From Lingula anatina (lineage: Eukaryota; Animalia; Brachiopoda): a stretch of 64,000 bases of DNA. Where the stretch lies: positions 14,942,001 through 15,006,000 of the forward strand of contig CM120641.1 in assembly GCA_051362555.1 (NCBI GenBank). Reading direction: 5' to 3'. A model generated the notes under the pieces. The model did not search any database and was not told the origin of the DNA. It worked only from the letters and a program-made list of their open reading frames with translations. The translations under genes were made by a program, and so were the position numbers. Of this stretch, positions 5,080-48,124 are shown in pieces (the stretch's first letter is position 1; each line of letters begins with the position of its first letter).

Positions 5080-5156
5080 GAATACCACGAAACCACGAAT
5101 CGTTCACGATTTTTTAACGAATACCACGAATCGTTCACGATTTTTTTAACGAATCG
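5080..5156. repeat. Short tandem repeat (CGAATACCACGAATCGTTCACGATTTTTTAA-like unit)
   Basis: Direct repeats of ccacgaatcgttcacgattttttaacga are visible. Confidence 0.7.
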
Positions 5157-5234
5157 AAGACGAAAAAATTTCGACGTCGAAACCTTTCGAGAATACCGCC
5201 CCAGATCATTTTTGGATAAAAATCCCCACAGTTT

Positions 5235-5903
5235 CACCCTGAGCTTCAAAGATAACTTGACACTAACCTCTTCACTATAGCCTATCTTCATCGTGTCAAG
5301 TTACCTCTGACGAAAATAGTTTGACCTAGTTTATGTAAGCCAATCGAATCCAAGTTTCAAAATTTTTCACCAAAGTTTGGTGAAAACGCTGATTGGTTGA
5401 CCGTCAATCGGTAATCCTCGGCTGATTCCGCAAGCTCCATACTAACAACAAAGTTATTGTCGAGTGCGGAGACATCCGAGTAGTTCCGAGTGCATAACCG
5501 TACACAAAGAAAGCATGGCGTCTCCTACGAGTGATTACGTAAAATTATGTGTTAAGTTATCTCTTGATTCTTTGCAAAATATGAGTATATCGGAATTGAA
5601 ACCAGAGCAGTTTGAGGCCCTGCATCATTATCTACTGAGGGATGATGTATTTTGCGTGCTGCCCACAGGTTACGGCAAGTCCCTGATATTCAGCCTTATC
5701 TTTGATTGGTCCGGATTTGAACAAAGCGCGCTTTGACTCGTTCGCGTTCATTGGCTAGATCGTTCAATGAGTCATTGAGTGCGGGCTTTAAATTTGATTG
5801 GCGGGCGGCGGGGACAATCGAATGTGGTCAGAGGTAACTTGACACGATGAAGATAGGCTATAGTGAAGAGGTTAGTGTCAAGTTATCTCTGAAGCTCAGG
5901 GTG
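5235..5903 (+). mobile_element. 669-bp TIR element carrying a RecQ-like helicase fragment (AcademH-like non-autonomous element?)
   Basis: Near-perfect ~77-bp TIR (CACCCTGAGCTTCA...TTACCTCTGAC); 8-bp TSD CACAGTTT at 5227-5234 and 5904-5911; internal ORF 5464-5736 encodes LKPEQFEAL..DVFCVLPTGYGKSLIF (RecQ/SF2 Q-motif and motif I). Confidence 0.8.
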
Positions 5904-5933
5904 CACAGTTTACAATCAAGGAAGAACGAGGAA

Positions 5934-8406: not shown

Positions 8407-9765
8407 GTAAGATATTATTATTCATGCAGAGTTTCACTTAACCAAATATAAGAGATCTGAGTTATTTTAAAAGTGGATGTGTTAAAAGATCAGAAATAAT
8501 CAGCAGTGGAAAGATATTGAATAAAAATATATGGTTTTTATTCACAATGGAGAATGTCTTGCTTTAAGGCCGGTGATAGGGTTAAATACGCTTAAAATCA
8601 TGTTTTTGAGTTTTTTGTGTGTTTATATTAATCAAAAAAGTATCTAACGTTGCATGTAATAATTTTTATGAATTTGCATCGCAAAATGTGTCTTTTGATG
8701 AGTTTTTCAACCGGCACGCGCCCCAGTCAGGCTGACAACTAAGCCACGCCTCTGTTACTAAGGGCCGTTGCCATGAGGGGGTCGGAGCACAGTTAATGAG
8801 TTATAAGCCGATTACGTGTGCGGTAATAGGTCATAAGTCTTACATCAGCTTAGCAGCGAAGAAGTCTAGCTAGTACACTATGAATGTGTTTCATCATATA
8901 CTGGTACTAGTATGATCTACACCAAGACAACACACATTTTGATAATATATCCTTGCCACAGTCTGTATTGTAAAAAATTGTCTTTTAAGCTTCAAAAGTT
9001 CCGGATGCAGTATGTGACGAAGTGTCTGACACGTCCATATGGTGCGTCAGTTTCAAACAGTGGTCTTCACAGAACGGAGGTCTATCAGCAAACACAATAT
9101 TCACCTTCAAGCTGAAGTACGCTCCGCTCACCTCTACCATCAATGCAGGTTCTTGGGCATTATCTAAGAAACTCAGCTCAAGGTTACCCTGAGTGTCAGA
9201 GCACAGTAAAAGCTAGCTTGTTAAAAATCTTGTGATGCGATCGCTTTTACTAGCTCTGGCGAACAGCGGCCATGTTAGATTTCCGTCAATCAAATAGAAC
9301 TGCTCCGCAGTGAATCTCATCAGAATCAGCAGTTGAATGTCATCAGACCAAAATGAAACGTAAAACAGATTTAATTCTGCTTTATTTAATTTTATTTACT
9401 GTAGTAAGATATGTAAAGTGAAAAATAAATAATATGTTTCTAAAAGAAAAAGGTATATCCAATGTTTTTTGTATTTTTGCTTATCAAAGAACATTTGCTC
9501 TTGAAGATATATATAAACACAGTACACGTGCTTGCCATGTGCCAAGTTTGACAGCTACACTGTATGCCCGATACCAATATAAGGGCTGCGCAATGGCCAC
9601 ACCAAAATCAGTTTTTAAAGCAGAATGTTGTTGTGTTGTGGTACTGACCTTCGACTGCAAGATATTCTTAGTTAAAACTTCCAACTCCGCGTCAGCCACT
9701 TTGCTTCTTGTCTCGTCTGCACGAGATAACATCAGCTCCAGGCGGGAAAGGCAGCTCCAGGCGGG

Positions 9766-9870
9766 CAAAGCTGTGACGTACGAGACATGACTTCCAAATA
9801 TGGGAGCTCCAGGGGGACAAAGCTGTGACGTACTAGACTTGTGACTTCCAAATATGGAAGCGCCCCAGGC
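9766..9870. repeat. Two-copy ~53-bp tandem repeat
   Basis: aaagctgtgacgtac(g/t)agac..tgacttccaaatatgg occurs twice. Confidence 0.7.
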
Positions 9871-11141
9871 AAAATTTTGAAGAAGAATGCCCACGAATTG
9901 ACGGTGTTCGCTAGAGCCTGGTATTGCTGATATGGGTTATATATGAAATCCAGAACGAGCTGCCAATACCGGAATCTACCGTATAGCTAAAAAAAAACAC
10001 GACTATTGGTACGCGTATGATCGATAACTGATTTAATTCTCGTAAGATTACCATCCGCCCCCTTCCTTATGAATAGGTATTACTTTATCAATACAATGCA
10101 ACCGTCGTGTAGCCGCATGTTAGAAGACAATGTTTGATTACGCACAGCAGTAGGAGGCCGCTACCCCTTCCCAGCAAGGAGTCAACACAGCAGCGCGTAA
10201 CCCGGGGTTAATTAGGGGTTATTAGCTGTCCACTTATGATCGGTATTGTTCGTCTTGATTGCAGCACACTTCCTACTCACTATTGGTTCGACCGCCTCTT
10301 CTTTAAATGCTCTCTCAAACCTTTCCTCTGTCAGCCGAGAATGGAAACACGTTTATCTGCCGATAACTTACGTCGTTGATGTATTATTCGGCATCATTCA
10401 ACAGTGGTTCATAAGGCTCTATCTATCATTTTTTTCGTCTCGCATTTTACCAGATTGAGCTGACGCTCGAAAACTAAATTTAATGAATAATTTTCTCACG
10501 TGCACCGTATCCAGCTAATTTTACGACAATAACTACCACGGCACCTCCGCCATTTGCAATTGTAGACGAACCACGTGTTTCCAACTGATAGGCCAATACA
10601 ACTATACCAGACCCATTGTACGAGAAAAGACCGTTTATATTTAATTAATTAAAAAATATTTGAGGATTGCGACTTTCTATTGATATACTGTCGATGGTAT
10701 CCCTGTATTAAATCATCCACTGCTACCCCCACTTTTGTTGTGTAGCATGACTCGTATCACAAGATGGCCTTAGAAATGAAGTAAAACAGGCCTACACTCT
10801 GATAGTTTTTAGTCTATTATTAACCCTAATGTCGTTGCTTGTCATTCATTCTAGAACTCTCTGAGCCATCGCAAAATTATTTGCCAGGACATTTAAAGGC
10901 TACTTCTTAACGGATTTTTTTTTATTTGCACTGAGTCCAAAATGTTCGAGGACGTCTCTGTCGTTATCGCCGTTTCTCGGACGCAGTCCCAGACAAAGGA
11001 TCGGAAAGTTTCTAAATAAAAGAACTTATAAATGCTGCCACTAGCCATCCTTATTGTTCCTAAGTAAAGAGAGGCGATAATGATCTTTTCTTTCTTCTAG
11101 CTTAGTCTGTCGACTAAAATGAACAAGGTTAGGCCTACAAT

Positions 11142-12205
11142 GCAACCACCTATTATTACGACCATTAATGAGGTTCTTTGCTACACTCCCTTTCTTCATG
11201 ATCGCGAAACCAGTGGGGTGCTGTGTTTTAAATATATAAAAAAGGGTCTCGCGAGGTGAAGCTATAATAATGAAATAAAAAAAATCCAATGAATAGGCCT
11301 ATCTAATAAACCATGAAGCACGTAGTCTAGGCCTCTTCTTTGACCGACATCACATTTTTACATTCTTTGTTTTAATAAGAGGACAAACGTGGTCTAATTT
11401 GTCTTTTGGTGGTGTGTGATTTTGCTTGAAGTAGCGGAGTCAAGTAAATCGGTGATTTACCGTTGGTAAGAGTAGCGATCATCGCTCCTGCGTCCTCATA
11501 GATTACTTTCTAATCACCCGTAATTAACGCAGTCAGGAATAAGCGCTCAAATAGGGGTTTTTGTATCAGGGAAAATTTTAGTATTAATCTTATGTTATTA
11601 TGTATCTGTATTATGTAATCATGTAACTCATTTTCCCAAGGCAACCACCAATTATGACGACCATTAATGAAGTTCTCTGCTACACTCTCTCCTCATGATC
11701 ACTTGCTCGATCGTGAAACCCTGGAGGTGTTGTATATATATTTGGGGTAGTTTACTATAGCATGCTACACTCTCCTCATGATCAGCTGCTCGATCGTGAA
11801 ATCTGGAGTGAAACCCATGGTTTATCTAACAATGGTTTAAATAAATAAAAAGGGTGTCACGGAGGTGAAGCTGCTTAACTCATAAGAATAACGAACGAAA
11901 AAATACGATGAACATTTAATAAACCACGAAGCACGTATGTTTTGACCGTTATCGCCTTTTTTACATAAGATGTCTCAACAAGAAGGCAGATGTAGTCCAA
12001 TTTGTCTTTTGTTGGTGATTCTGCTTCAGGTGGCTGAGATTAGTTGATCGGTGATGCACCGTTGGTAAGAGTAGCAATCATCACTCCTGTGTTCTAACGG
12101 ATTACTTTCCAACCCCCCATAATTAACGCAGCCAGGAATAGGCGCTGAAATAGGGGGTATTAAATCAGGAATTAATTTTTGTAATTATGTATCCGTAAAA
12201 TAAGA
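11142..12205. repeat. Diverged tandem duplication (~0.5-kb unit; copies ~11142-11620 and ~11641-12205)
   Basis: Colinear shared motifs: gaccattaatga..ttct..gctacactc, gaggtgaagct, aataaacca.gaagcacgta, aatttgtctttt, ccgttggtaagagtagc.atcatc, taattaacgcag.caggaata.gcgct.aaatagggg. Confidence 0.85.
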
Positions 12206-15046
12206 ATCGTAACATTATCACGTATTTTTCCTGATGGAAAATATCATAATTTATGCACACTGATCGAATTATAAAGAAAATCTCCAGATGTAAATAAAGG
12301 TCAGTCAAGTATCACTCATCCCAGGCTGCAGGGCAGATATAGAGAATTGAATGAAGCGCCAGTGATCTGGCAACCCTACAAATTTGTCATAATGATTCAT
12401 GGGCAAACAATAGAAGCATGATATTAACACCTTTTACAGTGTGAATGACGACACCTTATGAGGCTTTTGTTTCTTCCCCTGGGTTGGTATTACAAAGTAA
12501 GTATGTTGACGTAAGTGTGTTGACTTTTGCATGTTCAAAGGAACAATGGAAATGTCATTTCAAAACAAAGAGCCACATTTCCCTACTTAGGTGGCCAAAA
12601 TATTGTCAATGAAACGCAAAAAAGACAAAATCACCAGCTGTTACTGACTGAGTCTAACTCAAATGCAAAAAGGTACGCACAGCGACAAAGCGCTATTGTA
12701 AACAATGACCTGACGATGAGATCAATAAGATGTATAAAATGACTATTTGTACTATAAAACTGTACCCCTGCCCCTATTTGTATATTATTACACACACAAG
12801 GCCACCCTATACCAGAGTTACAGATTGATTTTTCATTACACAGTCTCTTGCACTGAAGAAAAATACTCGTAATTAATTTGCGGCCCTAGTAGAGGGTCTT
12901 CTCTCGCTTTCTCTCAAATCAAAATAAACTAGCAAACATGAAAATTGGCAAAATGTATTAGAATGTAAAGTGTTGCGAACCCTTTAAACAAGGTGAATGG
13001 TAATATGCACGTTTAGACAAATTTTAATTTTAATTTCAATTAAATTTAATTTTAATTAAAATTGATATTACCAAAATTAGTAAATGTCGTTTGCGTCATG
13101 TATCAATATTTTTGCGCATAATAGTACCTACGTTATAAACATTCAGCAAAGATATTTGGAAGGCCGCTCTTTTGTTGTTTATATCAAAGGAAAACTATTT
13201 GATACCCATCGTATCAATCATTATACCATGATAAGAGATTAGCATACTAATTTATGTCCCCAGTAATAATAACTTTAACAATAACAACAAACCTTCCTAC
13301 TGTGCTTTCCGTTGCAAAAACAATTAGCCACGACTGTTTTATATATTAATAGATATTCATAATAATGACAATTTCAAAATCTTCAAAAGTACCGACAGGG
13401 ACACGAACTCCCGTCGGGTAGGTTGCAGACGACTCAACGACGTTAACCGTGGTTCCACCAATTCTATTATTCGCGCATACAGATATCGACAGCTCTGTAT
13501 TGCCGCGCATGCCGAAGCTTTGCGGAAATTGCCGAAGGCTAGGAAAATTCTTCAAAATATACTTTTATTACATTTAATCAAATCCAGACTATCTCCCACT
13601 GCCCTGAGGTATGGCTAAAGGCTTTCAGTTGTCATCAGACTTTGTAATTTGGGAGAAAAAAGTGAAACAGTAACTTCTGGTGATGAATAATAGGTAATAG
13701 TGCTGCAAGGTGTTGTTTTTTATCCCTGATGTACGAGTAGCTTTTTCTACAGTTTCTATAATTCTCTTAACGTATGAAAATATGCAGGTTTTCTGATATA
13801 ATAAGACTTTGATAAAATCAAAACCAATAATACTTTTAAAGTCGAGAGTCGGGATAAATATCGGCAAGGTGGAGATATGTCCCGCCGGCGCCTACGCAAC
13901 AGCAAGACTGAAGGACGCAAGTTACAAAGCAAAACATGTTTAGTCAAGTTAAAGACTTAATTACCGGTTTAACTTCGGCGGCAGTGCCTACTGCTGTGAG
14001 CAACATGCGCTGTCCATCGTAATCCCCCTATCATTAACACTGTCGGGGACGTGCGCATTAGCGCGTCTGATGTAGACAGCGTGTGCTATTAAAGTGACCG
14101 GGGACTTATTAGCTATAGTGTAGAACCTAGGGTACTCAAGGTACGTTTCCGTTTCAATCTGTACACATGCATTAGAACCTACACTAAATCCATGGTGTAA
14201 AAAGAAATGAAAACTTCTTCTTTTTTTTACATTTTGACAACTTTAACCTGGCATTCTGTAGTATAAGCAGTAGCAGCTTTTAGTGGCAGATTCTGAAATT
14301 GGCTTCGGCTACAGGTTTGAGGTGTACGAGACTACTGTCTGATAGTTGAATCTCAGAGAAGAGAATGCTTAAGGAACTTTGGTGGGAATAAAAAGTTAAG
14401 AGGCGACCATATATCGTGTTAACAACTTAAAATACGACATTAGTAAAATTCGATTAATTTATTCAATCATTTCAAGTATTTCACCTACTTTTGAAGTTGC
14501 TATTATTTCATAGACTAAACAAAATATGTCTTTACTATTGCAAATTTTCAAACACAATACAAGAAGATTTAATGCAATCAAACCACATAACATTAGGCTT
14601 TTTAAGATAGCGCTGCTTGTGACACCTCATTGTTATCAAGCACAACCCTTCAGTGTCACAGCTACCACATTGTGCCACATTTTTTTACGTTAAAATTAAA
14701 AAAAAACCAGTAGAACGCATGCGACGACGAAACGTATATTGGCAATCATATCGCATCTTTCCAAGTTAATGCCTTTCGCAAAGTATCTGCATAACACCAT
14801 AGTGTATATAATGCTATACTCGTAGCTTATCCTTCTGTTTTTCTGTCTTATTTTCAAGGTTACATTTCAACAAATATGTGCGCATGCGTACAGAACCCAG
14901 TGTCTAATTGTAGGGGTCCATGTTCCTCCCTACCCAGGTTCTTCTAATATTTCACTTGTCACTGAAGCATGGGAGAGGGAATATAACCACAATCTCACAT
15001 CTTCAGTTCCAACTTGAAAGACCTTTATTAAGTCCAAGCATTCAGC

Positions 15047-15327
15047 TGAATGCATTTGCTGAATCTTTCTTAATCTACCGCCACTGACTCATTATGTCAA
15101 GGACAGTTACACGTACCATACAAAGCTACCCGTTGTCTCAACCGCTGTGGGAATTTATTATGATCGTATTTTAAAGCTAACAGGAGCGACATGTCGCCGA
15201 CTTAATGCTTCACACTGCAGACGACTATCTGGGAACATGTATGGAGCTGCTGAAATCATACTGCCTGATCATATATCAGAGGGTACTAAAAAGCAAGAAC
15301 AAACCGTTCCCGGAGCCTGGACTGCAG
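15047..15327 (+). pseudogene. Degenerate copy of folate-receptor-like exon 1 and its upstream flank
   Basis: Encodes HVADLMLHTADDYLGTCMELLKS[insertion]KSKNKPFPEPGLQ|gtagac, homologous to 40922-41098; the start codon is degraded, there is an upstream stop and a ~30-bp insertion. Confidence 0.9.
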
Positions 15328-15364
15328 GTAGACATGTACATTACTGAACATTCAGCGCTCAGTT

Positions 15365-15892
15365 ATTTAGAGGTTGCTGATTTTAATAACAATAAAATGC
15401 GTTATCCAATCGACCACATTATCGTTTATAACGTAATGACTGCGTTCCTATAAAACCATCGTACAAGCTGGACCGATCAAAATCTGCGGGGCTGCTTACT
15501 TCAATGATTTCAGTGTAAACAGTTTAATTGTCGGGCATGTCCCCTTGAGTTAACTATAGGGGGTAATGAGTAGGGGTGCCAGACATTTAAGCAACTTACA
15601 CTGAATGCAATTAAGAGAGAATCCCCGCAGAGTTAAATTGATCCAACTAGTACAATGGGTTTATGGGAACGCTCCCTATGTCTTAACTTATCAAACAATT
15701 TCTGTGAATGGAATGGAATGGACCTTGGGAAGTATTAGGTAACTCGCTGCAAAAGATGCGTACTCTCGACCTTTCAAGTAACAGTTGTTCAAAAATCAGT
15801 GAGTCGTTCTTATATAATTTTTCTACAACTCAGATTTTACACCTGCATAATAAAAAACTAAAATATTTTGACACTATATAGCGAGTGGTTCA
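15365..15892 (+). pseudogene. TLR ectodomain (central LRR) relic, interrupted by a MITE
   Basis: LEVADFNNNKMRYPIDHIIVYN then, after the MITE, cttaacttatcaaacaat...gaccttgggaagtatta...aaaatcagtgag.cgttcttatataatttttctacaac, matching TLR1 19968-20260; contains frameshifts. Confidence 0.9.
15442..15672. mobile_element. MITE (~230 bp), related to the MITEs at 22.0, 42.3 and 48.7 kb
   Basis: Inverted ends GCGTTCCTATAAAACCATCGTACAAGCTGGA / TCCAACTAGTACAATGGGTTTATGGGAACGC; interrupts TLR homology. Confidence 0.75.
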
Positions 15893-16194
15893 ATGTTATT
15901 GGAAAAGTCTTGATGCAGAATGGCTGTCTTTAGTCCTTTTTGCGCTTGGTAATTTTTATTTATTTTTTTATTCCCCAATAATCTTTGTGTATAATTCGTG
16001 TTTATACTTTTAAAAATACAACTTTTTCGTATCTTGCGTTATACAAATTGTTTAAAAGACAGTGGATTAGTACTTTTGCCCTAAACTGATGAATACCCGG
16101 TAAAGGAGTTCTGTGAAGTCAGTCTAAATGGTGGAAAATCACAACTTTGTCAATAAATCAGTAAGTTTCGATTTTATAAATATCTCATTGGTAA

Positions 16195-16960
16195 TCTTAC
16201 TGGTTTCCTTATTTATCTCAAAGGAAGCAGAAGTGAAAGCGACAGTGGTGAGTCAACTTTTCTGGAATCAATCTGCTTTCAATTCCACAGCAATGTTTAA
16301 CGGCAACGGGGTGGGTCGTGACTATGCACTTTTAAACATATAAACTTTTTCGACTTGTAAAATTAATAATATTGGAATTCAACATGTATCTCCAAAGGAG
16401 GAAGCAATAGTATAGTGAGTCAACTTATCTGTTATCAGTCTGCTTTCAATTCCACAGCAATGTTTGCAGACATAGGGGGTGGGCTTTGAATATCCATTTT
16501 TAAACATTTAAGCTTGTAAAATGAATAATGTTGGAATTCAAATCGCGCTAGAAGATACGTAATGCACAAGCGAAAACAAAATTGGCTGAGGTGGCGGAGG
16601 GGAGAGGGGGGGGGGGGAGTGTACAAGCAAAAGAAAATTTCTTGCCTCCCTCCGCTCGGTAATTGTAAAAACGTCGCACGATCACAATTTACCAATTTAC
16701 AAAGGGATGGAAAATTTCTTTAGATCTGTCTAGTTACTTATATATTTTCTTAGAGGTTGGGGACAGGTTTTAACCTTAAAAGAGGGAGAAGGGGATATCT
16801 TCAATGCAAAGGAAGGAGACACTTGCCTGCTCTGCTCCCCTGTTTCCCCACCCCCTACGGCAATGTGTTGTACTGCATTCAAGCGTACTCTCCTACTTAA
16901 TTTGTTTAAATGAGCGGTCCCCACCTAAATATATCTCTAACATTTCAAGTTGGGTGCATT
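16195..16960 (+). promoter_or_regulatory. Orphan copy of the conserved TLR upstream block (core motif present twice)
   Basis: gtgagtcaactt.tctg..atca.tctgctttcaattccacagcaatgtt at ~16248 and ~16415; also seen at ~18023 (upstream of TLR1) and ~30559 (upstream of TLR3). Function is inferred only. Confidence 0.45.
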
Positions 16961-18804
16961 TTTAGATTGGTGGCGTAAAAGTAAAAGACACAAAAGCAAC
17001 CTGCCTCGGAGGAGATAGTTTTAACTTGAATGGGCACACATGTGAAAATCTACATGTATATGTCCTCAACATTGCTTCGTGTGAGTTTGTTTGTGCTGCT
17101 ACATTTCGAGGGCAATTTGAAGACAATTTAAAAAAGACCCAAATATAGGGAAGCCTGATTTAGGGCTAGGGTCAGACGTTATGTTTGCGTGTATAATATC
17201 TTGGCCCTAAACTTATGCTGTCACATATTATTCTTGTACTAGTACTACCAAAAAAAAAGCAATGAGGGAAATGACTGGAAGACTCCACTATAGTTGTTAT
17301 TCGATACTTCACGTTTGATGATTGGCAGTTTCTATCCAAGAAACGAGGAAGTAGTAGCGGTACCGAAAAACCCCCCATTGAATCGTTATTGATTTATTTT
17401 CGGCGTTAAAGCCTTCCCCCAGATGAAAAATATTTTGAATAGGTTTATACGAGTTCATCTTTCCTAATAGCTTTCTTTTTCCTGGTCTCTTCACGTCAGA
17501 TACTCTCTATTTATGCTACGTCCATCGCATTTCAGTGGCAAATTAAAGTTGCTACAGGTATTAAGGCCTCAATAAACGGTGTTCTTCTGGTTTTTTATGT
17601 CATAACTAACGCGATACAATGAAACTCGATTTTAGACAACTTACATAATTGTAAATTATTCTTTATTGGGCTTTCCTTTTAGCGCTAGGCTATTTTTAAA
17701 AATCGTGATCAATCTTTGTCTATAATTTTCGTTTAAACTTTTAAAAAATATAACTTCGTTATACGTATTGTTCATCTAGATTAAATGATATCCTTTGCTG
17801 GATTTTCTTTAAAAAACGTTTGTCGCAATCCTCTCTTTGCGAAACAGCAAACTTCAGAAATTGGAAGGTAGGTCATTTCTACATAAACATGTATATGTGA
17901 TATACTGTGGAAAGAATTCACAATGAGTTTCGATACAATACGTATCTCTTTGGTTAGCTAACTAGTTTCTTTATTTATCTAAAAGTGAAGCAGAAGAGGA
18001 AGCAAAAGCGAAAGCAATAATAATGAGACAACTTATCTGTTATCAGTATGTTTTCGATTCCACAGCAATGTTTGCAGACATAAGGGGTGGGCTTTGAATA
18101 TCCATCTTTAAACATTTAAACTTTGTCGACTTATAAAATTAATAAATTAATTGAAATTCAAATCACGCTGGGAGATATCTAATGCACATGTCGGGTCGGG
18201 GGAGGGGGATACAAGTAAAGAAAATGTTTTGCCTCGTTCTGCTCGTTGGTTGTAAAACAGTGTACAATCACGATTCACCATGCAGGGTATATGAATGAAA
18301 ACCTTCTTTTGATTAGTCTAATTATTTTTTTCATTTTCTTATTTAAGGGAGGGGAAGGCAAGGAAAAGGGGAAAGGGGTTATCTCCAGTGCAAAGGGGGT
18401 AAGGCACGTGTCTGGTGTGCTCCCCTGCGCCCATGCCCCCAACAGTAATGTGCATTCATACGGTTGGTCCTGGTCATTTTTTATTGAGTACCTAATTATA
18501 TATTTATCATTTGACATATCTAGTAGGGTACATTTTTAGATTGGTGATGTAGAAAAGACCTAAATGATTTCCATTCAAAGCTATTGATCGCCTTAATCGG
18601 CAGGCACTGAATTGAAAACATAGTCAAGCTCGAATATCCTGTTGTCAGGCGAGGAATGAAAAAAAAGAACTGCGCAATTCCATTATAATATTCTTTTATA
18701 ATTACCAGGAAGTATGGGGTTTTGGAAAGAGAGAAGTCGCTGGTATAAAAGAGAATTGCTTTCCAAAAGTAAAGTAGTTTCTGTCCAACTCGACAGCACT
18801 GAGC

Positions 18805-21333
18805 ATGTTGTGTAAAGATTTGATTCTGCTGGTTTTCATCACTGCGCCACTCGGTTGGCGAGTATCTCACAGTCATCGTCATTGTACGATCTATGACGAC
18901 TTACTGCGCCGTGAAGTCCTCTACGACTGCTCGGGTAGGAAGCTTCACGGCGTTCCAGTGGACATCCCGGCCAATGTCACGGCGATCGATTTATCCTACA
19001 ATCGAATCACAAGGATAACGCCGGGTAATTTTGGTCGTCTTCGTAATCTCAGTCGTTTAGACCTGTCGGACAATCGCATAGGAAAACTTGAGTTGGGTGC
19101 GTTTACAGACGTACCCAAACTACGCATGTTGAATCTTCGATCTAACTACTTAAGAATGGATTACGAGTCATTTCCACGAGGCGTTTTTAAAAACCTATCA
19201 CAATTACAATGGTTAGACTTAAAAAACAACACCAACCGTTACCCAAAACCGAAAGAAAACTACCCTGACGAGACCCTCAAAGACCTGACGGGTTTAACAG
19301 AATTATATGTGGACGGACTAAATATGGAGAATTCTGTTCTTGGCCCAGGATTCGCTTCTCTAAAAACATTGAGTTTGTTGGATTTTTCTGGAGATAATGG
19401 ACGCTGCAACCTAAAGAAATTAAGCAAAAATGTATTTTACAATTTACGTAATTCACAGTTGGAGTATCTCGACCTGGCGTATTGTGAACTGTATAAGATT
19501 GATAATTTTACTTTCACTTTTCTTCAAACAATCAAGACTCTTGATATTTCAGGTAACAAATATCTTGGATTAAATAGACTGGGGGGAGTTTTTTATGGAT
19601 TACAAAATTCATCTTTGGAGCGTCTAATATTAAATGCAACAACGTCCCGGGAAAGTAGGACGTACATGTTGTACAGTAGTCGCGTATCCCATTATCTCCA
19701 GAACATTACAACATTAAAACATTTAACTCTGGACAGTAACTCCATATCGGATCTTGAATCAAACACGCATGTGTACTTGGGACATTTAGAAACTTTATCT
19801 CTTTCTGACAACATTTTTCTGAACGCAATCATGCCAGCGTTTGACTTGAGCCATTTGCAACATCTAAAGTACCTCAACTGGAGCTGGACATTTAGATCTA
19901 AACCTGAGGTACAGCTTAAACAATTAGAACGTGGAGAGTTCACGTTTACTATTATTTCCGCCCCCAATTTAGAGGTAGCTGACTTAAATAACAACGACTT
20001 GCAATATCCGCTCAACCACATCATTGTTCATAACGCTACGTCTCTCAGGTTTCTTAACTTATCAAACAATAATTTCTATGAATGGAATGGACCATGGGAA
20101 GTATTAGATAACTCGTTTCGAAAGATGCATACTCTAGACCTCTCAGGTAATAACTGTAGAAAAATCAGTGAGACGTTCTTATATAATTTTTCTACAACCC
20201 ATGTTTTACATCTACAGAATAATAGGCTGGGGTATTCTGACACTATAGCAAATGGTTCACACACAAGTCCTTTTGGGTGGCTTGTCAATTTGACGTATGT
20301 GGATATATCTTCCAACGAAATGGAAAAGTTATCCCCAAATTTGTTCAACAATAATACCAAGCTACAGACAATGATGTTGAGAAACAATTATCTTACTTCG
20401 GATGGATTAAACCTTGACTTGAAAAACATATCTTTCTTGGATCTCGCCTACAATAAACTGGGTTCTCTGAATGCCAAAATGAGGTCTGTATTAGACGACG
20501 TCCAAACACGAGAAAAGTTGGTCAATGTGGTCGTAAATTTGGCGGGAAATCCGTTGCAGTGCACATGTGAAACTGAACAATTTTTCGTCTGGATGCAAAA
20601 AACAAAAGTACAATTTGTCGGTCAAGATGACTATCAATGCACCCTAAAAAATGGAAGCATCGTTAGTATAAAACAACTTTCTGCAATCGTTGGACACCTC
20701 AAAGTCACGTGCGCTTCTAAATTTACTTTGACACTCGTGTCTGTTGTTGTTTCACTTGTTATCATTACTGTTGTCGCGTCTGCGGTGTATTACAGATTCA
20801 GATGGGAAATTAAGTATTTCTTTTATAAATTACGAATAAGACGCAAAGAATACGAAGAAGTTCATGGAGATGATAACTATCAATATGACGCTTTCGTGGC
20901 ATTTAGCAAGGAAGACTACAAGTGGGTGTACAGACAACTGCGACCCAATCTAGAAGACGCAGAAGCCGAGCAAGACCGACTCCGTTTATGTCTTCATCAT
21001 CGTGACTTCCTACCTGGTGAAGACATCGAGGAAAACATTATCCAATCTATTTCACAAAGCAGAAAAACAGTTTTGGTGATAAGCCGAAATTTCGTGCGCA
21101 GCAACTGGTGCTACTTCGAAATGAAAATGGCGCGCATGCGATTGTTTGAAGAGGGAAAAGACGTCCTTGTTCTGATTTTGTTGGAGGACATTCCATTCCG
21201 TGAAATGAATGACACCCTGTTTCATTTGTTTAAATCAAAAAGTTATTTGGAGTGGCCTGACAACCAAAGAGATCAAGACGTTTTTTGGAAAAAGATAAGA
21301 ATGGTACTGAAAAGAAATAATGACGGGGTTTAA
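18805..21333 (+). CDS. Toll-like receptor (single cysteine cluster type), paralog 1, 842 aa, intronless CDS
   Basis: Signal peptide, LRRNT (CSGRKLHGVP), many LxxLxLxxN repeats, LRRCT (NPLQCTC...C...C), TM helix, TIR domain (YDAFVAFS, LCLHHRDFLPG, SRNFVRSNWCYFE, FW). Confidence 0.97.
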   Translation: MLCKDLILLVFITAPLGWRVSHSHRHCTIYDDLLRREVLYDCSGRKLHGVPVDIPANVTAIDLSYNRITRITPGNFGRLRNLSRLDLSDNRIGKLELGAFTDVPKLRMLNLRSNYLRMDYESFPRGVFKNLSQLQWLDLKNNTNRYPKPKENYPDETLKDLTGLTELYVDGLNMENSVLGPGFASLKTLSLLDFSGDNGRCNLKKLSKNVFYNLRNSQLEYLDLAYCELYKIDNFTFTFLQTIKTLDISGNKYLGLNRLGGVFYGLQNSSLERLILNATTSRESRTYMLYSSRVSHYLQNITTLKHLTLDSNSISDLESNTHVYLGHLETLSLSDNIFLNAIMPAFDLSHLQHLKYLNWSWTFRSKPEVQLKQLERGEFTFTIISAPNLEVADLNNNDLQYPLNHIIVHNATSLRFLNLSNNNFYEWNGPWEVLDNSFRKMHTLDLSGNNCRKISETFLYNFSTTHVLHLQNNRLGYSDTIANGSHTSPFGWLVNLTYVDISSNEMEKLSPNLFNNNTKLQTMMLRNNYLTSDGLNLDLKNISFLDLAYNKLGSLNAKMRSVLDDVQTREKLVNVVVNLAGNPLQCTCETEQFFVWMQKTKVQFVGQDDYQCTLKNGSIVSIKQLSAIVGHLKVTCASKFTLTLVSVVVSLVIITVVASAVYYRFRWEIKYFFYKLRIRRKEYEEVHGDDNYQYDAFVAFSKEDYKWVYRQLRPNLEDAEAEQDRLRLCLHHRDFLPGEDIEENIIQSISQSRKTVLVISRNFVRSNWCYFEMKMARMRLFEEGKDVLVLILLEDIPFREMNDTLFHLFKSKSYLEWPDNQRDQDVFWKKIRMVLKRNNDGV

Positions 21334-22018: not shown

Positions 22019-22806
22019 GGTTCCCATGCCTAGATCGATCCATCTGGATCGGTCTAACTCCCTGGGGAATCTCACTAAATTGCTATCAACTTGAAGGCTT
22101 AAAGGGATAATAACTCTTCGTTTCGGCCAAAAAATGAGCACATACGTTGTATAAATTACACAGCTCACTCTTTTCATTGAGGTTGTCTACTAATGGAATT
22201 ATCGTGGGATAATTATTGATGCGTTTGTCATCTAACACTAGGACTCAATACTGAGTCACAGACTGGCTTGATATTTCTGATAATACAGTGTTACTTTTGG
22301 GGGTTATGTTAAAGGGATAATAACTCTTCGTTTCGGCCAAAAAATGAATTTTCCTGGAGTAAACAACAATTTTCCCATACTTACCAATGGTTAATGAATC
22401 CATTTTTACATTCAAAGTTAGTCCCTGTTTTTTTTCTAAAAAGTTTGGTCTTTTGTTAAAATCTCCTAAGAGATTATAACAGAGTATAGCCATCAATGGA
22501 GGTTACGTGGTCTAAAGACAAGCTCAGATATTAGAATAATAGCTTTAACTGCCGTTTTTGTGGTAAAAGAGAATATATTATATTTCTATGAGTTATTCAC
22601 AATGTTTTTATTGTGAAATATAGATCTCATACGAAGAGTTATTATCCCTTTAAATGTCTGTCACCCCTACTGAATCATCTAGGGTGTAAAGATAATTACC
22701 CCCTAACAGCTTTACTAGGCTTGACCGATATTTAAGCGGGATAAGCTGATAGCAATTTAGTAAGACTCCCCAGGGAGATAGATCGATCCAAATATCTGTG
22801 GGAATG
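22019..22806. mobile_element. MITE (TAGATCGATC family) carrying nested insertions
   Basis: Inverted ends ..tagatcgatc..ctcccctggggaatctcactaaattgctatca / tgatagcaatttagtaagactccccaggggagatagatcgatc; related to 42282-42491 and 48670-48882. Confidence 0.7.
22103..22649. mobile_element. Kolobok-like non-autonomous element (TTAA TSD)
   Basis: TIR AGGGATAATAACTCTTCGT / ACGAAGAGTTATTATCCCT; TTAA at 22099-102 and 22650-53; RR..YY termini; a second copy of the left end lies at ~22309-22347. Confidence 0.8.
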
Positions 22807-26834: not shown

Positions 26835-29366
26835 ATGTTGTGCAAACTTGTAACTCTGTTAGTTTTCACCACGCTGTCATTGGCCTGGCGGCCGCATCAT
26901 GATTCCAGCAATTGTTCAATTGAAAATGCCCCACTGCGCCAAGATGTCATTTACAACTGCTCGGGTAGGAAGCTTCACGGCGTTCCAGTCGACTTTCCAG
27001 ACAATGTCACGGTGATCGATTTATCCTACAATCGAATCACCAGCATAACGCCGGGTAATTTCGCTCATCTGCGTAATCTCAGTCGCCTGTACCTGTCGGA
27101 CAATCGCATAGGAAAACTTGAGTTGGGTGCATTTGTAGATGTCCCTAATTTACGAGTGTTGAATCTACGATCTAATTACTTACGAATGGATTACGAGTCA
27201 TTTCCACGAGGCGTTTTTAAAAATCTGTCCCAATTACAATGGTTAGATGTAAAAAACAACACCAACCGTTACCCACAACCGAACGAAAACTATCCTGACG
27301 AGACCTTCAAAGACTTGGCGGGTTTAACAGAACTATATCTGGACGGACTTAATATGGAGAATTCTGTTCTTGGCCCAGGATTTGCTTCTCTTAAAAGATT
27401 GCGTTTATTGGATTTTTCTGGAGATAACGGACGCTGCAGTCTAAAGAAATTAAGTAAAAATGTATTTTACAATTTACGCAATCTTCAATTGGAGCATCTC
27501 GATCTAGCGTTTTGTGAACTGTATAAAATTGATAACTTAACTTTCAGCTTTCTACAAACAATCAAGACTCTTGATATTTCAGGTAACAAATATCTTGGAT
27601 TAAATAGACTGGGAGGAGTTTTTTATGGATTACAAAATTCATCTTTAGAGCGGCTAATACTGAATGCAACAACGTCTCCAGATGATAGAACGTACAAGCT
27701 GTACAGTAGTCGTGTTTTTCATTACCTCCGGAACATTACAACACTAAAACATTTAACTCTCGACACTAATTACATATCAGATCTTGAATCAGACACGCAC
27801 ATGTACGTGGAACATTTAGAAACCCTCTCCCTTTCCGATAACACGTTCCTTAACGCAGTCAAGCCAGCGTTTGACTTGTGCCATTTGCAACATCTTAAGT
27901 ACCTCAACTGGAGCTGGACATTTAGATCTAAACCTGGGATACTGTTCAAACAGCAATTAAGACGTGGAGAGTTAACGATTAATGTTGCTGCCCCCCCAAA
28001 AGTGGAGGTAGCTGATTTTAATAACAACAAATTGCAATGTCCGCTGAACCACATCATTTTGCACAACTCTACATCCATCAGGTTTCTAAACTTATCAAAC
28101 AATAATTTCTATGAATGGAATGGACCATGGGAAGTATTTGATAGCTCGCTTCGAAAGATGCATACTCTAGACCTCTCGGGTAACGGCTGTAGAAAAATCA
28201 GTGAGTGGTTCTTTTATAATTTTTCTACAACTCACATTTTACATTTACAGAATAATAAACTCGGACAATCTGACACTATAGCAAATGGCTCATATTCAAG
28301 TCCGTTTCGGTGGCTCGCCAATTTAACGTACTTGGATTTGTCTTCCAACGAAATGGAAAAAGTTTCCCCAACTTTGTTCAACAATAATACCAAGCTACAG
28401 ACAGTTATATTGAGAAACAATTATCTTACATCGGAAGGATTAAATCTTGACTTGAAAAACATATCCTTCTTGGATCTAGCCTACAATAATCTGGATTCTC
28501 TGAATGACAAAATGATGTTTGTATTAGACGACGTCCAATCACGAGAAAATTTGGTAAATGTGGTCGTAAATTTGGCGAGAAATCCGTTGCAGTGCATATG
28601 TGAAACTGAACAATTTTTCGTCTGGATGCAAAAAACAAAAGTACAATTTGTCGATCAAGATGACTATCAATGCACCCTAAAAAATGGAAGCATCGTTAGT
28701 ATAAAACAACTTTCTGCGATCATTGGACACCTCAAAGTCACGTGCGCTTCTAAACTTACTTTGACACTTGTGTCTGTTGCTGTTTCACTCGTAATCGTTA
28801 CTGTTGTCGCGTCTGCGGTGTATTACAGATTCAGATGGGAAATTAAGTATTTCTTTTATAAATTACGAATAAGACGCAAAGAATACGAAGAAGTTCACGG
28901 AGATGATAACTATCAATATGACGCTTTCGTGGCCTTTAGCAAGGAAGACTACAAGTGGGTGTACAGACAACTGCGACCCAATCTAGAAGACGCAGAAGCC
29001 GAGCAAGAGCGACTCCGTTTATGCCTTCATCATCGTGACTTCCTACCTGGTGAAGACATCGAGGAAAACATTATCCAATCTATCTCACAAAGCAGAAAAA
29101 CAGTTTTGGTGATAAGCCAAAATTTCGTGCGCAGCAACTGGTGCTACTTCGAAATGAAAATGGCGCGCATGCGATTGTTTGAAGAGGGAAAAGACGTCCT
29201 TGTTCTGATTATGTTGGAGGACATTCCATTCCGTGAAATGAATGACACCCTGTTTCATTTGTTTAAATCAAAAAGTTATTTGGAGTGGCCTGACAATCAA
29301 AGAGACCAAGAGCTTTTTTGGAAAAAGATAAGAATGGTACTAAAAAGAAATAATGATGGGGTTTAA
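26835..29366 (+). CDS. Toll-like receptor paralog 2, 843 aa
   Basis: Same SP-LRR-LRRCT-TM-TIR architecture; TIR nearly identical to paralog 1. Confidence 0.97.
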   Translation: MLCKLVTLLVFTTLSLAWRPHHDSSNCSIENAPLRQDVIYNCSGRKLHGVPVDFPDNVTVIDLSYNRITSITPGNFAHLRNLSRLYLSDNRIGKLELGAFVDVPNLRVLNLRSNYLRMDYESFPRGVFKNLSQLQWLDVKNNTNRYPQPNENYPDETFKDLAGLTELYLDGLNMENSVLGPGFASLKRLRLLDFSGDNGRCSLKKLSKNVFYNLRNLQLEHLDLAFCELYKIDNLTFSFLQTIKTLDISGNKYLGLNRLGGVFYGLQNSSLERLILNATTSPDDRTYKLYSSRVFHYLRNITTLKHLTLDTNYISDLESDTHMYVEHLETLSLSDNTFLNAVKPAFDLCHLQHLKYLNWSWTFRSKPGILFKQQLRRGELTINVAAPPKVEVADFNNNKLQCPLNHIILHNSTSIRFLNLSNNNFYEWNGPWEVFDSSLRKMHTLDLSGNGCRKISEWFFYNFSTTHILHLQNNKLGQSDTIANGSYSSPFRWLANLTYLDLSSNEMEKVSPTLFNNNTKLQTVILRNNYLTSEGLNLDLKNISFLDLAYNNLDSLNDKMMFVLDDVQSRENLVNVVVNLARNPLQCICETEQFFVWMQKTKVQFVDQDDYQCTLKNGSIVSIKQLSAIIGHLKVTCASKLTLTLVSVAVSLVIVTVVASAVYYRFRWEIKYFFYKLRIRRKEYEEVHGDDNYQYDAFVAFSKEDYKWVYRQLRPNLEDAEAEQERLRLCLHHRDFLPGEDIEENIIQSISQSRKTVLVISQNFVRSNWCYFEMKMARMRLFEEGKDVLVLIMLEDIPFREMNDTLFHLFKSKSYLEWPDNQRDQELFWKKIRMVLKRNNDGV

Positions 29367-38093: not shown

Positions 38094-38270
38094 ATGCATA
38101 GCTACCCGTTGTCTCAAGCACTGTGGGCATCCACCATTGTTTTCTTAAGCTATCAGGCCCGCCATGTCGCCGACCCGAGGCTCCGCACCGCAGACGACTA
38201 TCTGGACACATGTATGGAGTTGCTGAAATCACACAGCAAGAGCAAACCGTCTCCGGAACCCGAACTTGAG
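38094..38270 (+). CDS. Duplicate intact folate-receptor-like exon 1 (possible alternative first exon or orphan)
   Basis: ATG..MHSYPLSQALWASTIVFLSYQARHVADPRLRTADDYLDTCMELLKSHSKSKPSPEPELE|GTAGAG, phase 0. Confidence 0.55.
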
Positions 38271-40921: not shown

Positions 40922-43854
40922 ATGCGTAGCTACCCGTTGTCTCAAGCACTGTGGGCATTCACCATTGTTTTCTTATGCTATCAGGCCCGCCATGTCGCCG
41001 ACTCGAGGCTCCGCACCGCAGACGACTATCTGGACACATGTATGGAGTTGTTGAAATCACACAGCAAGAGCAAACCGTCTCCGGAACCCGGACTTGAGGT
41101 AGAGATTTACATGTATCTGAACATTTAACGCTCAGTAAAACTTAGCTACAGCGTACTGGAATCAACTTGGCCCACCAGTACATGTGCATGTGATTTATCC
41201 GTGTTATCAACGTGGTAGTCTCAGGCAAGTTTGTAATACTTTACAAACATAGGGAAGTCAGAATGTGTGTATGTATGTATTTATATACTCGCGTATATGC
41301 ATAGAAAGAAAAAAACATGCCCCCCACACAAACCAAGTTACGAAAGGTGAGAAACTTTAAATGTGTACCTCTGTACGAGCTAGGACACGCAGTCCCTGTA
41401 CTTTACATGTAGTGCCCTTATTTAACCAACAGCATCTTACGGAAATACATGTAGGCATTATACACGTTTCCCAAGGGCTTAGTTCGAATAGTCTTTTTTG
41501 ATGAAAAGAGGGTTTAGTAAAGTATACGTACTGAAAGGGATACCAAGTGTGCGTATGAGATTTGTATTTCACATATGAGATTCATAAATTGTAAACAACT
41601 CATAAAATTATAGTAAATTCAATTTTACCACCAAAACGGCGGTTATCGCAATTATTTTGGAATCTGTGCTTGTCATCAGACCACGTGGACTTTATCTATA
41701 CGTATATATACATATAGCTATCTATACCTCCGTAAAAATCTCCAAAGAGATTATTATAAAAATATTTTTTTAGAAAAAGACCATGGACTAACTTTGAATG
41801 CTTGCAGATACATTAACCTGGTAAGTATGTGAAAATCGTCGTTTACTCCTGGAAAATTAGTTTTTTGGCCAAAACTAACGGCTGCTATCCCTTGAATTAT
41901 CCATATTTTACGTGATCGCGTTAGCACGACGTGTCAATTGCACCTCCTCACAACTTGTTAGCCCTGAGATTTTTTTTTAATCGGAACCGGCTACGGGCCA
42001 TTTCGGGCTACGGCTACGGTTTTGTTTTTCGGACAACCACACCGTGCCTTCTCACGTACAGTTGTGTACGACGCACGAAAAAGAAATTAAAATACGGACA
42101 AGATGAGACTCCATGGGGGTATCGCAAGCCAAATGTAACGGTAACTTTGGAATGAGCCTCTCCTCTCACACTCACAACCGCGCGATGGGTGAACAATGTA
42201 AGATCTGTGTGTTAAACTTATCAGCGTTAAATCCTTGTCACCTCTCCCTTCTCTAAGTGGCGAACATCCGTCGTTTAACACCCCATTTCCAGAGATTAGA
42301 TCGACCTATTTTAGATCGACCTAACTCCCTGGGGGTTCACGCTAAATAGCTGTCAGCCGGGCGGACACGAAAGTTAATTACCACCTGACAGCTTGTAGTA
42401 AGCGGGACGGACATTTAAGTCGGATTATCTGAAAGTAATCTAGTGAGACTCCCCGCGGGGATAGATCGATCTAAAATCTATGGGAATAGAGCTACCAGGT
42501 GCAATTAAATGTACCCTATATGCATCTTGTCGGTGGTTGCTTGTTTCCTGGACATTGCTTGAGCGTTTGAAACAATCTAGCAGATTGCATTAATATGTCG
42601 TTTAACGGTTAGCTTAATAATTCATGTTTTTATGACTTTTAGTGTCCCCAGTATACGAAGAAGTCGTGCTGTAAAGCGGGTGTGACAGAGGATTTTGAGA
42701 CAAAGGAAAACTGGCAGAACATCACCAGCTATGTCCACTGTCCACAGAAGAGCAGTCTGTCACCGATGTGTCACAAGATGTTCTTTGATGAACTCTGCTT
42801 TTTCCTGTGCTCACCTTATATTGGGCCGTGGATTGCCCCCGCGGTGAGAGCGAGCACGATGGCTTTATTTTGAGTCAAGACATTTTGTTTGCTTATAAAC
42901 AACACTTCTGAATAGGAAAAATAATGCTTGACAATCGCTGTTGATCATATAGTACTGATTTCACTGAGGCGCGTACTATAATTCATGTGGGGGGGGGGGG
43001 CGCTTACCCCTCTTTGATTCATATGTAATTTCTTTTTTTTTTCTTTCAAACACACACGCATGCACTTCACCATTTTACAGATGTTAGGGCTAAATTTGTT
43101 GAACATGCAGCATGAAACAGCAATCAATCATTTCACACATGAATATAGCACTATACTTTTAAATACAAATAAAACTGTATTGGACGCTTGTACTTCGTTT
43201 CAGACACATGACGAACCTGTAACCGACCGCTTCACAGACGTTCCATTGTGCGCCAGTGAGTGTAACTCGTGGTGGGAGGCATGCAAAGGAGAATATACTT
43301 GTCACGAAAATTGGTACACTGATTTTGATAGAGATGAAAATGGTAAATTCTTTACTTTTTATTTAACTGATGACTTGTGTATCAAAAATCGGATTATATG
43401 TGTGCCGCCGAAGCGTCGCAATCTTCGTTATTTGATCAAAATAAATGGTCGAAGAATATACCAGCACAAACATATACTCAAAGTCGTTTATTTCAATCTA
43501 ATCTCGTGGCACCAGTAGGTTTGTCTAGTGGGGTCGTGGTTTTCAAAAACAATGTCTTTTGCGTGATTGACTAGTTAAAACTATTATCACTAAGTAAGTA
43601 TAAATATTAAAATATATTTAACTTTCCTTTTAGGATTAAACATATGCAAAGAGGGCGCTGAGTGCAGGACGTATGAAGACGTGTACGGGACAGCTTTCCA
43701 CTTTTGTGAAATAATTTGGGATCATTCTTTTAAGGTAGTCCCAGATGAAGTGCCTTGCATGAAATTTACGTTCGATCCTTCTGGCCCGGATCCTAATGAA
43801 GCGACGGCGAGAATGGTCGCAGAGACAAGTGCAAAAATGCACGAGGAACTGTGA
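40922..43854 (+). CDS. Folate receptor / riboflavin-binding protein family, paralog A ending in HEEL (exons 40922-41098, 42643-42843, 43204-43342, 43634-43854)
   Basis: GT-AG introns with phases 0,0,1; family motifs C..H.K.KPSPE, CPQY...SCC, CFFLCSPYIGPWI, DVPLC..EC..WWEACK..YTC..NW, FCEIIW.HSFKV, CMKF.FDP...PNE; ends ...ETSAKMHEEL*. Confidence 0.9.
42282..42491. mobile_element. MITE (TAGATCGA family) in intron 1
   Basis: Near-identical inverted copy at 48670-48882; imperfect TIRs. Confidence 0.8.
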
Positions 43855-45595: not shown

Positions 45596-48124
45596 ATGGC
45601 TGGTGACCAATTTTCTCAAGCGATGTGGACTTTCTTTGTCGTTATTCTGATATGGCAGGCACTACATGTCGCCGACTCAAGGCTCCGCACTGCAGACGAC
45701 TATCTGGACACATGCATGGAGCTGTTGAAATCACACAGCAAGAGCAAACCGTCCCCGGAACCCGGACTCGAGGTAGATGAAACTTCTAATTACTGCAAGA
45801 CACGAAAAAGTACGTTTCACCCTAACCACACCTTACCGTGTCATTTATTACTTCTCAGCGCGGCCAGTGTGTAATTACTGGGGGGAAAAAGAGGGAAACA
45901 AAAATGCAGGCTTTCTGTTTACCAGTACATTATTTGCTATGAAAAGCGAGATAAAAATTTTTATTATAGGTTTCACAATATAAATTTTAGTAGTAAGTGA
46001 ATGGTTAGAGTGATATTTTAAGGTAGTAGAGGGAGTTTCCTTAGAATAATAACCAAGTTAATATGTCCAAGGAATAAGGTCTCATTCTTGGTAGGCCTGT
46101 AAGTAAGGGAGTCTACACCAAAAGTCTTAAACCTAGGGCGAAGCATACATGTATATGTACAAATTAATGGGGAACGGTCACTCTATCAAGGGGACTCTCG
46201 ATCACGTTACACCGGCAATAGAGACCTTGCACTGAGGTTATTAATTGTTCCACAAGACAAAGATGTATGCTTTTTACTGACGACTTAGCACATTTAGTGT
46301 GGTGAGTGGTCTTCAATATTTATTATGTAAGGTTTTAACCAAAATCTATACACATAAATTACACTCGCAATTGTGGAAATGGTATGAACAATATTGAGGG
46401 ACACCTTAAAGACGGTTGGAGCGGGCTTTTTCGGTTAAAAAAAAAACAGTCCATGAAATGAAGTCAACTACGATGCAGAGAGGGGCGTAGAGTCTCATTT
46501 TGTAACTGCAGCCTGCAACCAAGAGAAAGTTCTTGAGGTCACTAAACTGTTCAAAGACCTATATACATATTACAAACTATAGGTGGGAGCTGCTTAACTA
46601 AATTACCAATTGTCGTGTTAACGTCTCATCAATACGAAAAATCCCGCCGAATACGAGGAGTATTACGCACTAATCGAGATCCACCGGAGCGCCAAAGACT
46701 ATCCAACACTTTCGTCTATCCAACTTTTTAAAATACATCGTTGGATCTGCTTTTTAGTATGCAAATTTGATTATCATATGCATATGTAGTGTCAAATAAA
46801 TTCATATTTGACTTTTCAAAACAAATTCAGTGTCCCCAGTATACGAAGAAGTCGTGCTGTAAAGCGGGTGTGACAGAGGACTTTGAGACAAAGGAAAACT
46901 GGCAGAACATCACCAACTATGTCCACTGTCCACAGAAGAGTCGTCTGTCACCGATGTGTCACAAGATGTTCTTTGATGAACTCTGCTTTTTCCTGTGCTC
47001 ACCTTATATTGGGCCGTGGATTGCCCCCGCGGTGAGTGCGACAATGGTGACTCTATTTTGAGTCAAGACAATATTGTTAAATGAAAATTTGGAACTTTAA
47101 ATTTCATTGTTATGATACACACTTTTGAAAATGACCCCTCCAAAGAATTACGATATCTGTGGCAGTCATCATTTCTAGTAGTTAAAATTTTAATATCACT
47201 GTTCTACATGTACCAGTATCTGCATTCTGACACCCACATTCCCTACTATTCTCCTTTCCAAAATTCTCTTCATATTTTTTCTCTGTTACACCTACACTAC
47301 TAAATATAAACAAACAAATACCGACAATTACACATCATATATAACATAGAACAGGCTACAAAATAGCGTGGCTTTAGGATGTCATACACATATACTAATT
47401 TTTTCAGACACATGACGAACCTGTAACCGACCGCTTCACAGACGTTCCATTGTGCGCCAGTGAGTGTAACTCGTGGTGGGAGGCATGCAAAGGAGAATAT
47501 ACTTGTCATGAGAACTGGTACACTGATTTTGATAGAGATGAAAATGGTATATGTCATTCATCTCCATGTCAGTAAATATTTGTAGAAAAAAACGTGTCTA
47601 ATGTGTTATAGTAGGCCCACTTAACTTTCCTTTGACAATGCGACGCTGCTCCAGTTGACTGCTACAATATAAAAGAAAATATTGGAATACATCAGCGCAA
47701 ATACAAACAAACAAACAAACAAATAAATAAATAAATGAATGAATAAATAAATAAACAATTTAAAACCTATGTTAATATGAGGCTAATATCACTAAGATTA
47801 ATACGTAAGGCGTTTTTTTTAGGAATAAACGTATGCAAAGCTGGTGCGGAATGCAGGACGTATGAAGCCATGTACAGGACAGCTTCCAACTTTTGTGAAA
47901 TTATATGGGATCGTTCATTCAAAGTGGTCCCAGATGAGGAACCCTGCATGAAATTCACGTTTGATCCAGCTGGCCTGGATCCGAATGAAGAGACGGCGAG
48001 GAAGGCTGCAGCGTCGAGCGCTATAAGGAACCTAGGAATGTCATTTTTTCAGTGGATTTGTTCTTTTTTTCTGATACATTGTATGACCCTTTACCAAAAC
48101 TTGCCTGCATGGGTGAATACATGA
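45596..48124 (+). CDS. Folate receptor / riboflavin-binding protein family, paralog B with GPI-anchor-like tail (exons 45596[or 45623]-45772, 46831-47031, 47408-47546, 47823-48124)
   Basis: Same exon sizes (201, 139 nt) and phases as paralog A; signal peptide MWTFFVVILIWQALHVADS; C-terminus AAASSAIRNLGMSFFQWICSFFLIHCMTLYQNLPAWVNT (small residues, then a hydrophobic stretch). Confidence 0.92.

Follow-up and report, generated by a model that had tools for sequence, protein, structure and literature searches.

A single open reading frame (ORF) in the genome of Lingula anatina runs without interruption from sequence resembling the first exon of a folate receptor (FOLR) gene into sequence resembling the leucine-rich repeats (LRRs) of a Toll-like receptor (TLR). 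It raises the question whether two unrelated gene families have been fused here into a gene, past or present, or whether the frame is an accident of decay. Here we delimit the parts of this relic within the whole stretch of DNA analysed (64,000 nucleotides; the window), document it in further DNA samples, and weigh the explanations of its origin. We consider it very probable, from the features of its sequence, that the relic is a chimeric pseudogene that never worked as a fusion protein. It joins two recognizable parents at a sharp junction, it is present in genomic DNA, and it carries inactivating lesions: loss of the start codon, two stops, insertion of a miniature transposable element (MITE), frameshifts, and removal of the membrane span and TIR domain.

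The TLR array and its folate-receptor neighbours

Three intact single-exon TLR genes, two four-exon FOLR genes and a seven-transmembrane (7TM) receptor ORF occupy the window, all on the plus strand. The TLR and FOLR genes, with the orphan exon copies between them, are as follows.

18805..21333, plus strand: TLR1, an intact single-exon LRR-TIR gene of 842 aa, with Pfam LRR and TIR matches
26835..29366, plus strand: TLR2, an intact ORF of 843 aa
31926..34451, plus strand: TLR3, an intact ORF of 841 aa
35382..35447, plus strand: an orphan copy of FOLR-A exon 1, truncated at its 5' end, from self-comparison
38094..38270, plus strand: an orphan full copy of FOLR-A exon 1, within a 2.8-kb tandem unit
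40922..43854, plus strand: FOLR-A, four exons with an open frame; the FOLR type to which the relic's intron, upstream region and signal peptide belong
45596..48124, plus strand: FOLR-B, four exons with an open frame; exons 2 and 3 match Pfam Folate_rec (PF03024)

A named L. anatina protein is 99% identical to TLR1, and the FOLR genes of the window match named folate receptors of this species. A difference of six separates the public accession numbers of TLR1 and FOLR-B, which suggests that public annotation also places the two side by side, although different longest contigs are listed for them. Two public gene models look faulty: protein P0003 is a mix of TLR2 and TLR3 pieces, and P0103 (FOLR-A) begins in mid-exon 1 and lacks the signal peptide.

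Sequence comparison within each family revealed uneven divergence. TLR2 and TLR3 are near-identical over codons 1-300 (dS 0.04), while TLR1 and TLR2 are the closest pair in the membrane-TIR part (dS 0.08); the three genes appear to be mosaics, consistent with conversion or unequal crossing-over. DNA identity between FOLR-A and FOLR-B is 94-97% in exons 2 and 3 and only 83% in exon 4, a contrast that suggests gene conversion. Because FOLR-A ends without the hydrophobic C-terminal tail of FOLR-B, one of the two is likely secreted and the other GPI-anchored.

Besides the relic, FOLR-A exon 1 has undergone two further partial duplications, at 35382 and 38094. The region 35382-41914 comprises a 2.8-kb tandem unit (95% identical) repeating this exon and part of intron 1, and each unit carries a minus-strand ORF (37251-37646; 39983-40465) that we take to resemble a LINE C-terminal fragment; a Pfam search with ORF 39983-40465 gave no match. 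Elsewhere the window holds an intact single-exon 7TM receptor ORF of the rhodopsin family (50885-51895; Pfam 7tm_1, E 3e-40), a 207-nt tandem repeat in three copies (54279-54903) and two decayed transposase-like ORFs. One of these, on the minus strand at 6343-7533 with inverted ends near 6123-6199 and 7522-7601, is presumably Tc1/mariner-like; the other, on the plus strand at 3285-3617 between inverted repeats 3134-3251 and 4624-4745, we take to be Harbinger-like.

Composition of the relic and its junction

The relic was compared with the remainder of the window and with contigs from four of ten matching DNA runs (X1, X5, X6 and X7), which represent four samples and three studies; X1 may be the source sample, and two other studies contributed X5, X6 and X7. 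Its parts and immediate surroundings are listed here.

14909..15040, no strand assigned: a high-copy repeat at the relic's left edge, with depth 6300-9800 in X5-X7 and loose contig ends at 14909
15044..15327, plus strand: a decayed copy of FOLR-A exon 1 including about 74 nt upstream, from self-comparison and alignment
15118..15120, plus strand: the lost FOLR start codon, ATA in the relic and ATG in FOLR-A
15172..15180, plus strand: two TAA stops (15172, 15178) in the signal-peptide region, from the reading frame
15205..15453, plus strand: the 82-codon chimeric ORF, its ATG standing where three complete FOLR exon-1 copies have Arg AGG
15262..15291, plus strand: a 30-nt insertion in the FOLR exon, missing from four other copies
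15328..15365, plus strand: a 38-nt remnant of FOLR-A intron 1 with its GT donor intact, 2 nt shorter than parental-type introns
15365..15365, no strand assigned: the FOLR-to-TLR junction, with one shared A; the parents show imperfect 7-nt similarity here
15365..15433, plus strand: the first TLR LRR piece, equivalent to TLR1 residues about 389-410
15436..15676, no strand assigned: a MITE-like insertion of about 240 nt, its ends approximate, with arms 15442-15537 and 15577-15672, which supplies the stop of the chimeric ORF
15681..15892, plus strand: the second TLR LRR piece, with indels of -3, +5 and +2 nt
15889..16127, plus strand: a second deletion junction into DNA like the TLR 3' flank, with 4-nt shared TTCA at 15889-15892
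16125..16980, plus strand: a copy of TLR 5'-flank DNA that leads into no TLR coding sequence

Self-comparison of the window confirmed both of the homologies first proposed for the relic. The stretch 15044-15365 matches four FOLR exon-1 copies; identity is 71% between 15044-15363 and FOLR exon 1 at 40846-41136 (E 4e-44), and 78% between 15044-15264 and 38018-38237. Upstream region, signal peptide and intron are all of FOLR-A type. On the 5' side this homology reaches some 74 nt beyond the old start codon and ends at the high-copy repeat, which may be LTR-like, having TG at its edge and AATAAA on the minus strand; no second copy of it was found within the window, nor was a source for the 30-nt insertion when looked for there. 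The FOLR-like motif with which the preliminary description opened the ORF is of FOLR origin, but its abridged form concealed this insertion, and the ATG of the ORF is not the FOLR start. On the other side, 15365-15433 is 84% identical to TLR3 at 33091-33159 (E 9e-14), and this 69-nt piece scores 83 against TLR3, compared with a maximum of 34 over 1000 shuffles. TLR homology resumes beyond the MITE, as had been noted: 15681-15892 matches TLR1-3 at 80-81%, with a weak LRR_8 match (E 5e-4) at 15711-15878. Of the LRR ectodomain, membrane span and TIR that make up a Toll-like receptor, LRR pieces alone remain, about 1.7 kb, membrane span and TIR included, being gone at the second junction. Further downstream, 16125-17790 holds TLR 5'-flank DNA and an extra 3'-flank piece, the coding sequence between the two being absent; a deletion may have removed another TLR unit there.

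The insertion that divides the TLR half is short and bounded by terminal inverted repeats, its arms being 96 nt long and 75% complementary. It is present in high copy, with many loose contig ends at 15677 and a contig depth in X5-X7 that reaches 5000-7200, where the junction bin has 54-207 (summed contig depth being only a rough guide). Related copies lie near 22716, 42397 and 48688, spanning 22688-22805, 42280-42492 and 48670-48882; two of these are 95% identical and inverted around FOLR-B. One reading that fits is a TA target-site duplication, provided that about 11 nt have gone missing as well; other readings fit too.

The join between the halves had been placed at about 15364, after some 35 nt of intron; the join itself stands, while its exact values become position 15365, with one shared A, and an intron remnant of 38 nt (15328-15365). 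Single contigs bridge 15365 in all four DNA runs with at least 31 nt on each side (X1, 15214-15503; X5, 15244-15518; X6, 15214-15518; X7, 15330-15518). Both edges of the MITE and the second deletion are likewise bridged in every run, and no joint or loose end at 15365 occurred among the contig matches listed; contigs being prone to drop rare variants, an undeleted allele may still occur. Because these contigs bridge 15365 in four of four runs, the relic is not a misassembly, a condition under which the chimera was to have been given up, and it is real and genomic. An assembly artefact joining two repeated loci might be suggested by the wealth of repeats and paralogs in the region, but it is scarcely conceivable when each half is 15-22% divergent from all its other copies in the window and when three of the runs that bridge the junction, the MITE edges and the second deletion derive from two further studies.

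The two TAA stops also occur in contigs of X1, X6 and X7, the three runs in which the matches listed allow them to be read. In X1 and X5 the contigs have a 1-nt insertion at some point within 15214-15518, an interval that the X6 contig spans without a gap. X7 has deletions around 15833-15849, and X5-X7 share a 2-nt insertion at 15104.

Reading frame, selection and decay

The ORF at 15205-15453 is open and both of its parts are read in their native frames, so that the in-frame union reported for it is correct. It begins after the signal peptide and contains about 30 residues of the mature FOLR start and about one LRR. Pfam searches with it gave no Folate_rec or LRR match at E<=0.1 (intact FOLR exon 1 alone gave no Folate_rec match either), and no signal peptide, membrane span or TIR was found in it. 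The parents belong to the folate receptor (PF03024) and TLR (LRR_8 + TIR) families, whereas the relic ORF matches neither. The protein collection contained no match to the exact 82-residue sequence; among longer proteins seven candidates appeared, none at E<=0.01, which is weak evidence only. FOLR exon 1 was matched by none of 102 TLR-like proteins of 463-1474 aa, and the only two candidates among longer proteins for FOLR exon 2 were ordinary folate receptors whose listed families include neither LRR nor TIR.

Classical exon shuffling places both breakpoints in introns of compatible phase and moves whole domains. In the relic the TLR breakpoint falls mid-exon, inside a single-exon coding sequence, and no whole domain is carried, so the preliminary description's view of the locus as a case of domain shuffling is not supported. 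Nor is any weight on the in-frame union supported: in all three parental-type introns the distance to the breakpoint is 2 nt longer, and the frame stops after nine codons. If the parental intron state is ancestral, the fusion would have been closed and out of phase at birth. Because the FOLR start is lost, two stops follow, the ATG derives from an Arg codon and the parental intron is longer and contains a stop, the ORF is likely a functionless chance by-product of decay. The indels and junction 5' of the MITE (+3, +30 and the junction) all keep the frame; over the whole relic four of seven do so, an unremarkable share (p=0.17). We also considered whether the FOLR donor might be spliced in frame to a cryptic acceptor at 15372 and rejected this by inference, as it would require a 45-nt intron and use of the second of two adjacent AGs, the first of which gives a frameshift.

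Selection was gauged from changes private to the relic over 36 mature FOLR codons and 84 TLR codons. The FOLR part has accumulated three synonymous and nine replacement changes (omega 0.84, p=0.73 against neutrality), whereas FOLR-A and FOLR-B differ at the same mature codons by six synonymous and no replacement changes. The TLR part has eight and 11 (omega 0.34, p=0.02 against neutrality), similar to the 13 and 17 of the live TLRs pooled; direct Fisher tests for a difference in decay were not significant (p=0.13 and 0.45). A functional chimeric gene would keep an intact frame from a genuine start through functional parts of both parents and would show purifying selection on both. Such a frame is absent from the relic, and on these small counts purifying selection is seen in the TLR part and not in the FOLR part; in the former the signal can predate the fusion.

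The lost paralog is itself distinctive. The TLR part has a dS of 0.50-0.57 to TLR1-3, compared with 0.34-0.36 among those three, and it shares 69-74% amino acid identity over 78 residues with five live paralogs, two of which sit on another scaffold. Its larger dS and the signature of purifying selection on its own branch mark it as a distinct paralog that worked for most of that branch, and support the earlier proposal that a further TLR once existed here. The earlier judgement that the relic is dead is likewise upheld by the lost start, the two stops, the MITE and the frameshifts, which together point to loss of function.

Whether the two halves died together was addressed with a crude Poisson model of the 36 and 84 codons, in which omega for live FOLR was set to one value and multiple hits were left uncorrected. 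Time dead is estimated at 0.106 substitutions per site (about 0.05-0.18) for the FOLR part and 0.004 (0-0.08) for the TLR part, and under this crude model equal dead times receive p=0.039. The difference weakly favours a dead FOLR fragment that was joined later to a living TLR, an outcome to be expected of a deletion. Start loss and two stops have a joint probability of 0.0008 at t=0.02, 0.014 at t=0.06 and 0.05 at t=0.11, about 65-fold likelier at 0.11 than at 0.02. The indel loads of the two parts (3-4 in FOLR, 5-6 in TLR) are similar, which fits simultaneous death.

Origin of the relic and its meaning

From these observations we infer both the lack of function and an order of events that we regard as fairly probable. 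The 5' end of FOLR-A, without exons 2-4, would have been duplicated upstream of the TLR array and have drifted thereafter. A non-homologous deletion would then have taken out the DNA from FOLR intron 1 to the middle of the LRRs in a TLR paralog that was older and still working, joining the two and killing that TLR, after which the MITE, small indels and the second deletion would have eroded the remainder. Finally, a 2-nt change in intron length, the change of AGG to ATG and the stop within the MITE would happen to delimit the present ORF. Deletions appear recurrent at this locus, to judge from the second junction at 15892 with its 4-nt microhomology and from the orphan TLR 5' flank, and this speaks for a deletion model. 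It had been proposed that the TLR and the FOLR 5' end were co-duplicated as a block before a deletion joined them; this is plausible and unproven, as no TLR or FOLR copy that might be the left-hand remnant of such a block was found in 1-15043, and a single duplication junction gives the identical join.

Such a single step, in which a template switch or a tandem duplication reached from the middle of the TLR to FOLR intron 1, would have left a product dead on arrival, with both halves decaying equally. We think it rather unlikely, though it deserves serious consideration: head-to-tail duplication of a TLR-then-FOLR segment should yield exactly the FOLR-then-TLR join, the other partial duplications of FOLR exon 1 are tandem junctions, indel loads in the halves are similar, and equal dead times of about 0.064 are rejected only marginally. 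It predicts, however, an upstream copy of TLR array sequence, which is missing from 1-15043, and none of the five live paralogs is a close match to the relic TLR. A bolder reading has the FOLR promoter and signal peptide placed on a TLR lacking its first 388 residues, giving a protein of about 530 aa with a few LRRs, a membrane span and TIR that was selected for a time and then died. The low omega of the TLR part beside a FOLR stub that drifted like an unconstrained linker would suit it, as would the frame-keeping +3, +30 and junction and the read-through free of stops. We nevertheless judge it improbable, as parental read-through is stopped and 2 nt out of phase, start loss and two stops demand a long dead time, no TLR-like protein in the set of 102 matched FOLR exon 1, and the overall proportion of frame-keeping changes is unremarkable, the in-frame junction having been the reason the finding was selected.

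Still less probable is an active element, transcribed at present and either yielding the 82-residue peptide or supplying TLR1 with an alternative 5' exon in the form of its exon 1. The intact GT donor at 15328, the ORF open in the window and the gap-free X6 contig would permit it; most of the upstream DNA is gone, however, the FOLR homology breaking off at the high-copy repeat, the ORF encodes neither a signal peptide nor a domain, its substitutions follow a neutral pattern, and the 1-nt insertion in X1 and X5 may break it. Our preferred reading thus remains a chimeric pseudogene assembled by duplication and deletion.

Unequal crossing-over is reportedly the mechanism behind the sirenian chimeric globin pseudogene and the hybrids of the RCCX locus. 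As presented in the passages drawn on here, these resemble the relic in being dead hybrids from rearrangement in a gene cluster (PMC6526914, PMC11542561), but they join paralogs, whereas the relic joins two unrelated families that share 1 nt at the join. According to excerpts of one study, local duplication commonly yields chimeras, most of which are lost (PMC5460883). The tandem-duplication chimeras of Drosophila yakuba treated there similarly fuse one gene's 5' end with the 3' part of its neighbour; they are young, polymorphic and accompanied by expression data, while the relic is old, broken, present in all four samples examined, and known from DNA alone. Excerpted accounts also document tandem TLR expansion in molluscs (PMC10279657) and list 25 TLRs for Lingula anatina (PMC8609888). 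The lophotrochozoan arrays they treat consist, as here, of species-specific tandem paralogs of one subfamily with gain and loss of copies, but neither pseudogenes nor fusion with a neighbouring family, both features of the relic, are described in those excerpts. A search of the open-access literature turned up no publication that treats this locus or a FOLR-TLR fusion.

The relic is likely an ordinary chimeric pseudogene, the debris of duplication and deletion and not a working new gene. As such it preserves, fossil-like, the birth and death of genes in a TLR array of an invertebrate, recording one more TLR paralog and a neighbouring FOLR exon 1 that has been partly copied at least three times, and it warns that an in-frame chimeric ORF can arise through decay alone. 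Were the chimera instead to have worked once, it would represent a new signalling receptor with a short ectodomain, perhaps still intact in lingulid brachiopods related to this one; an intact version in such a relative, if one exists, would be a TLR that took its leader and promoter from an unrelated neighbour.
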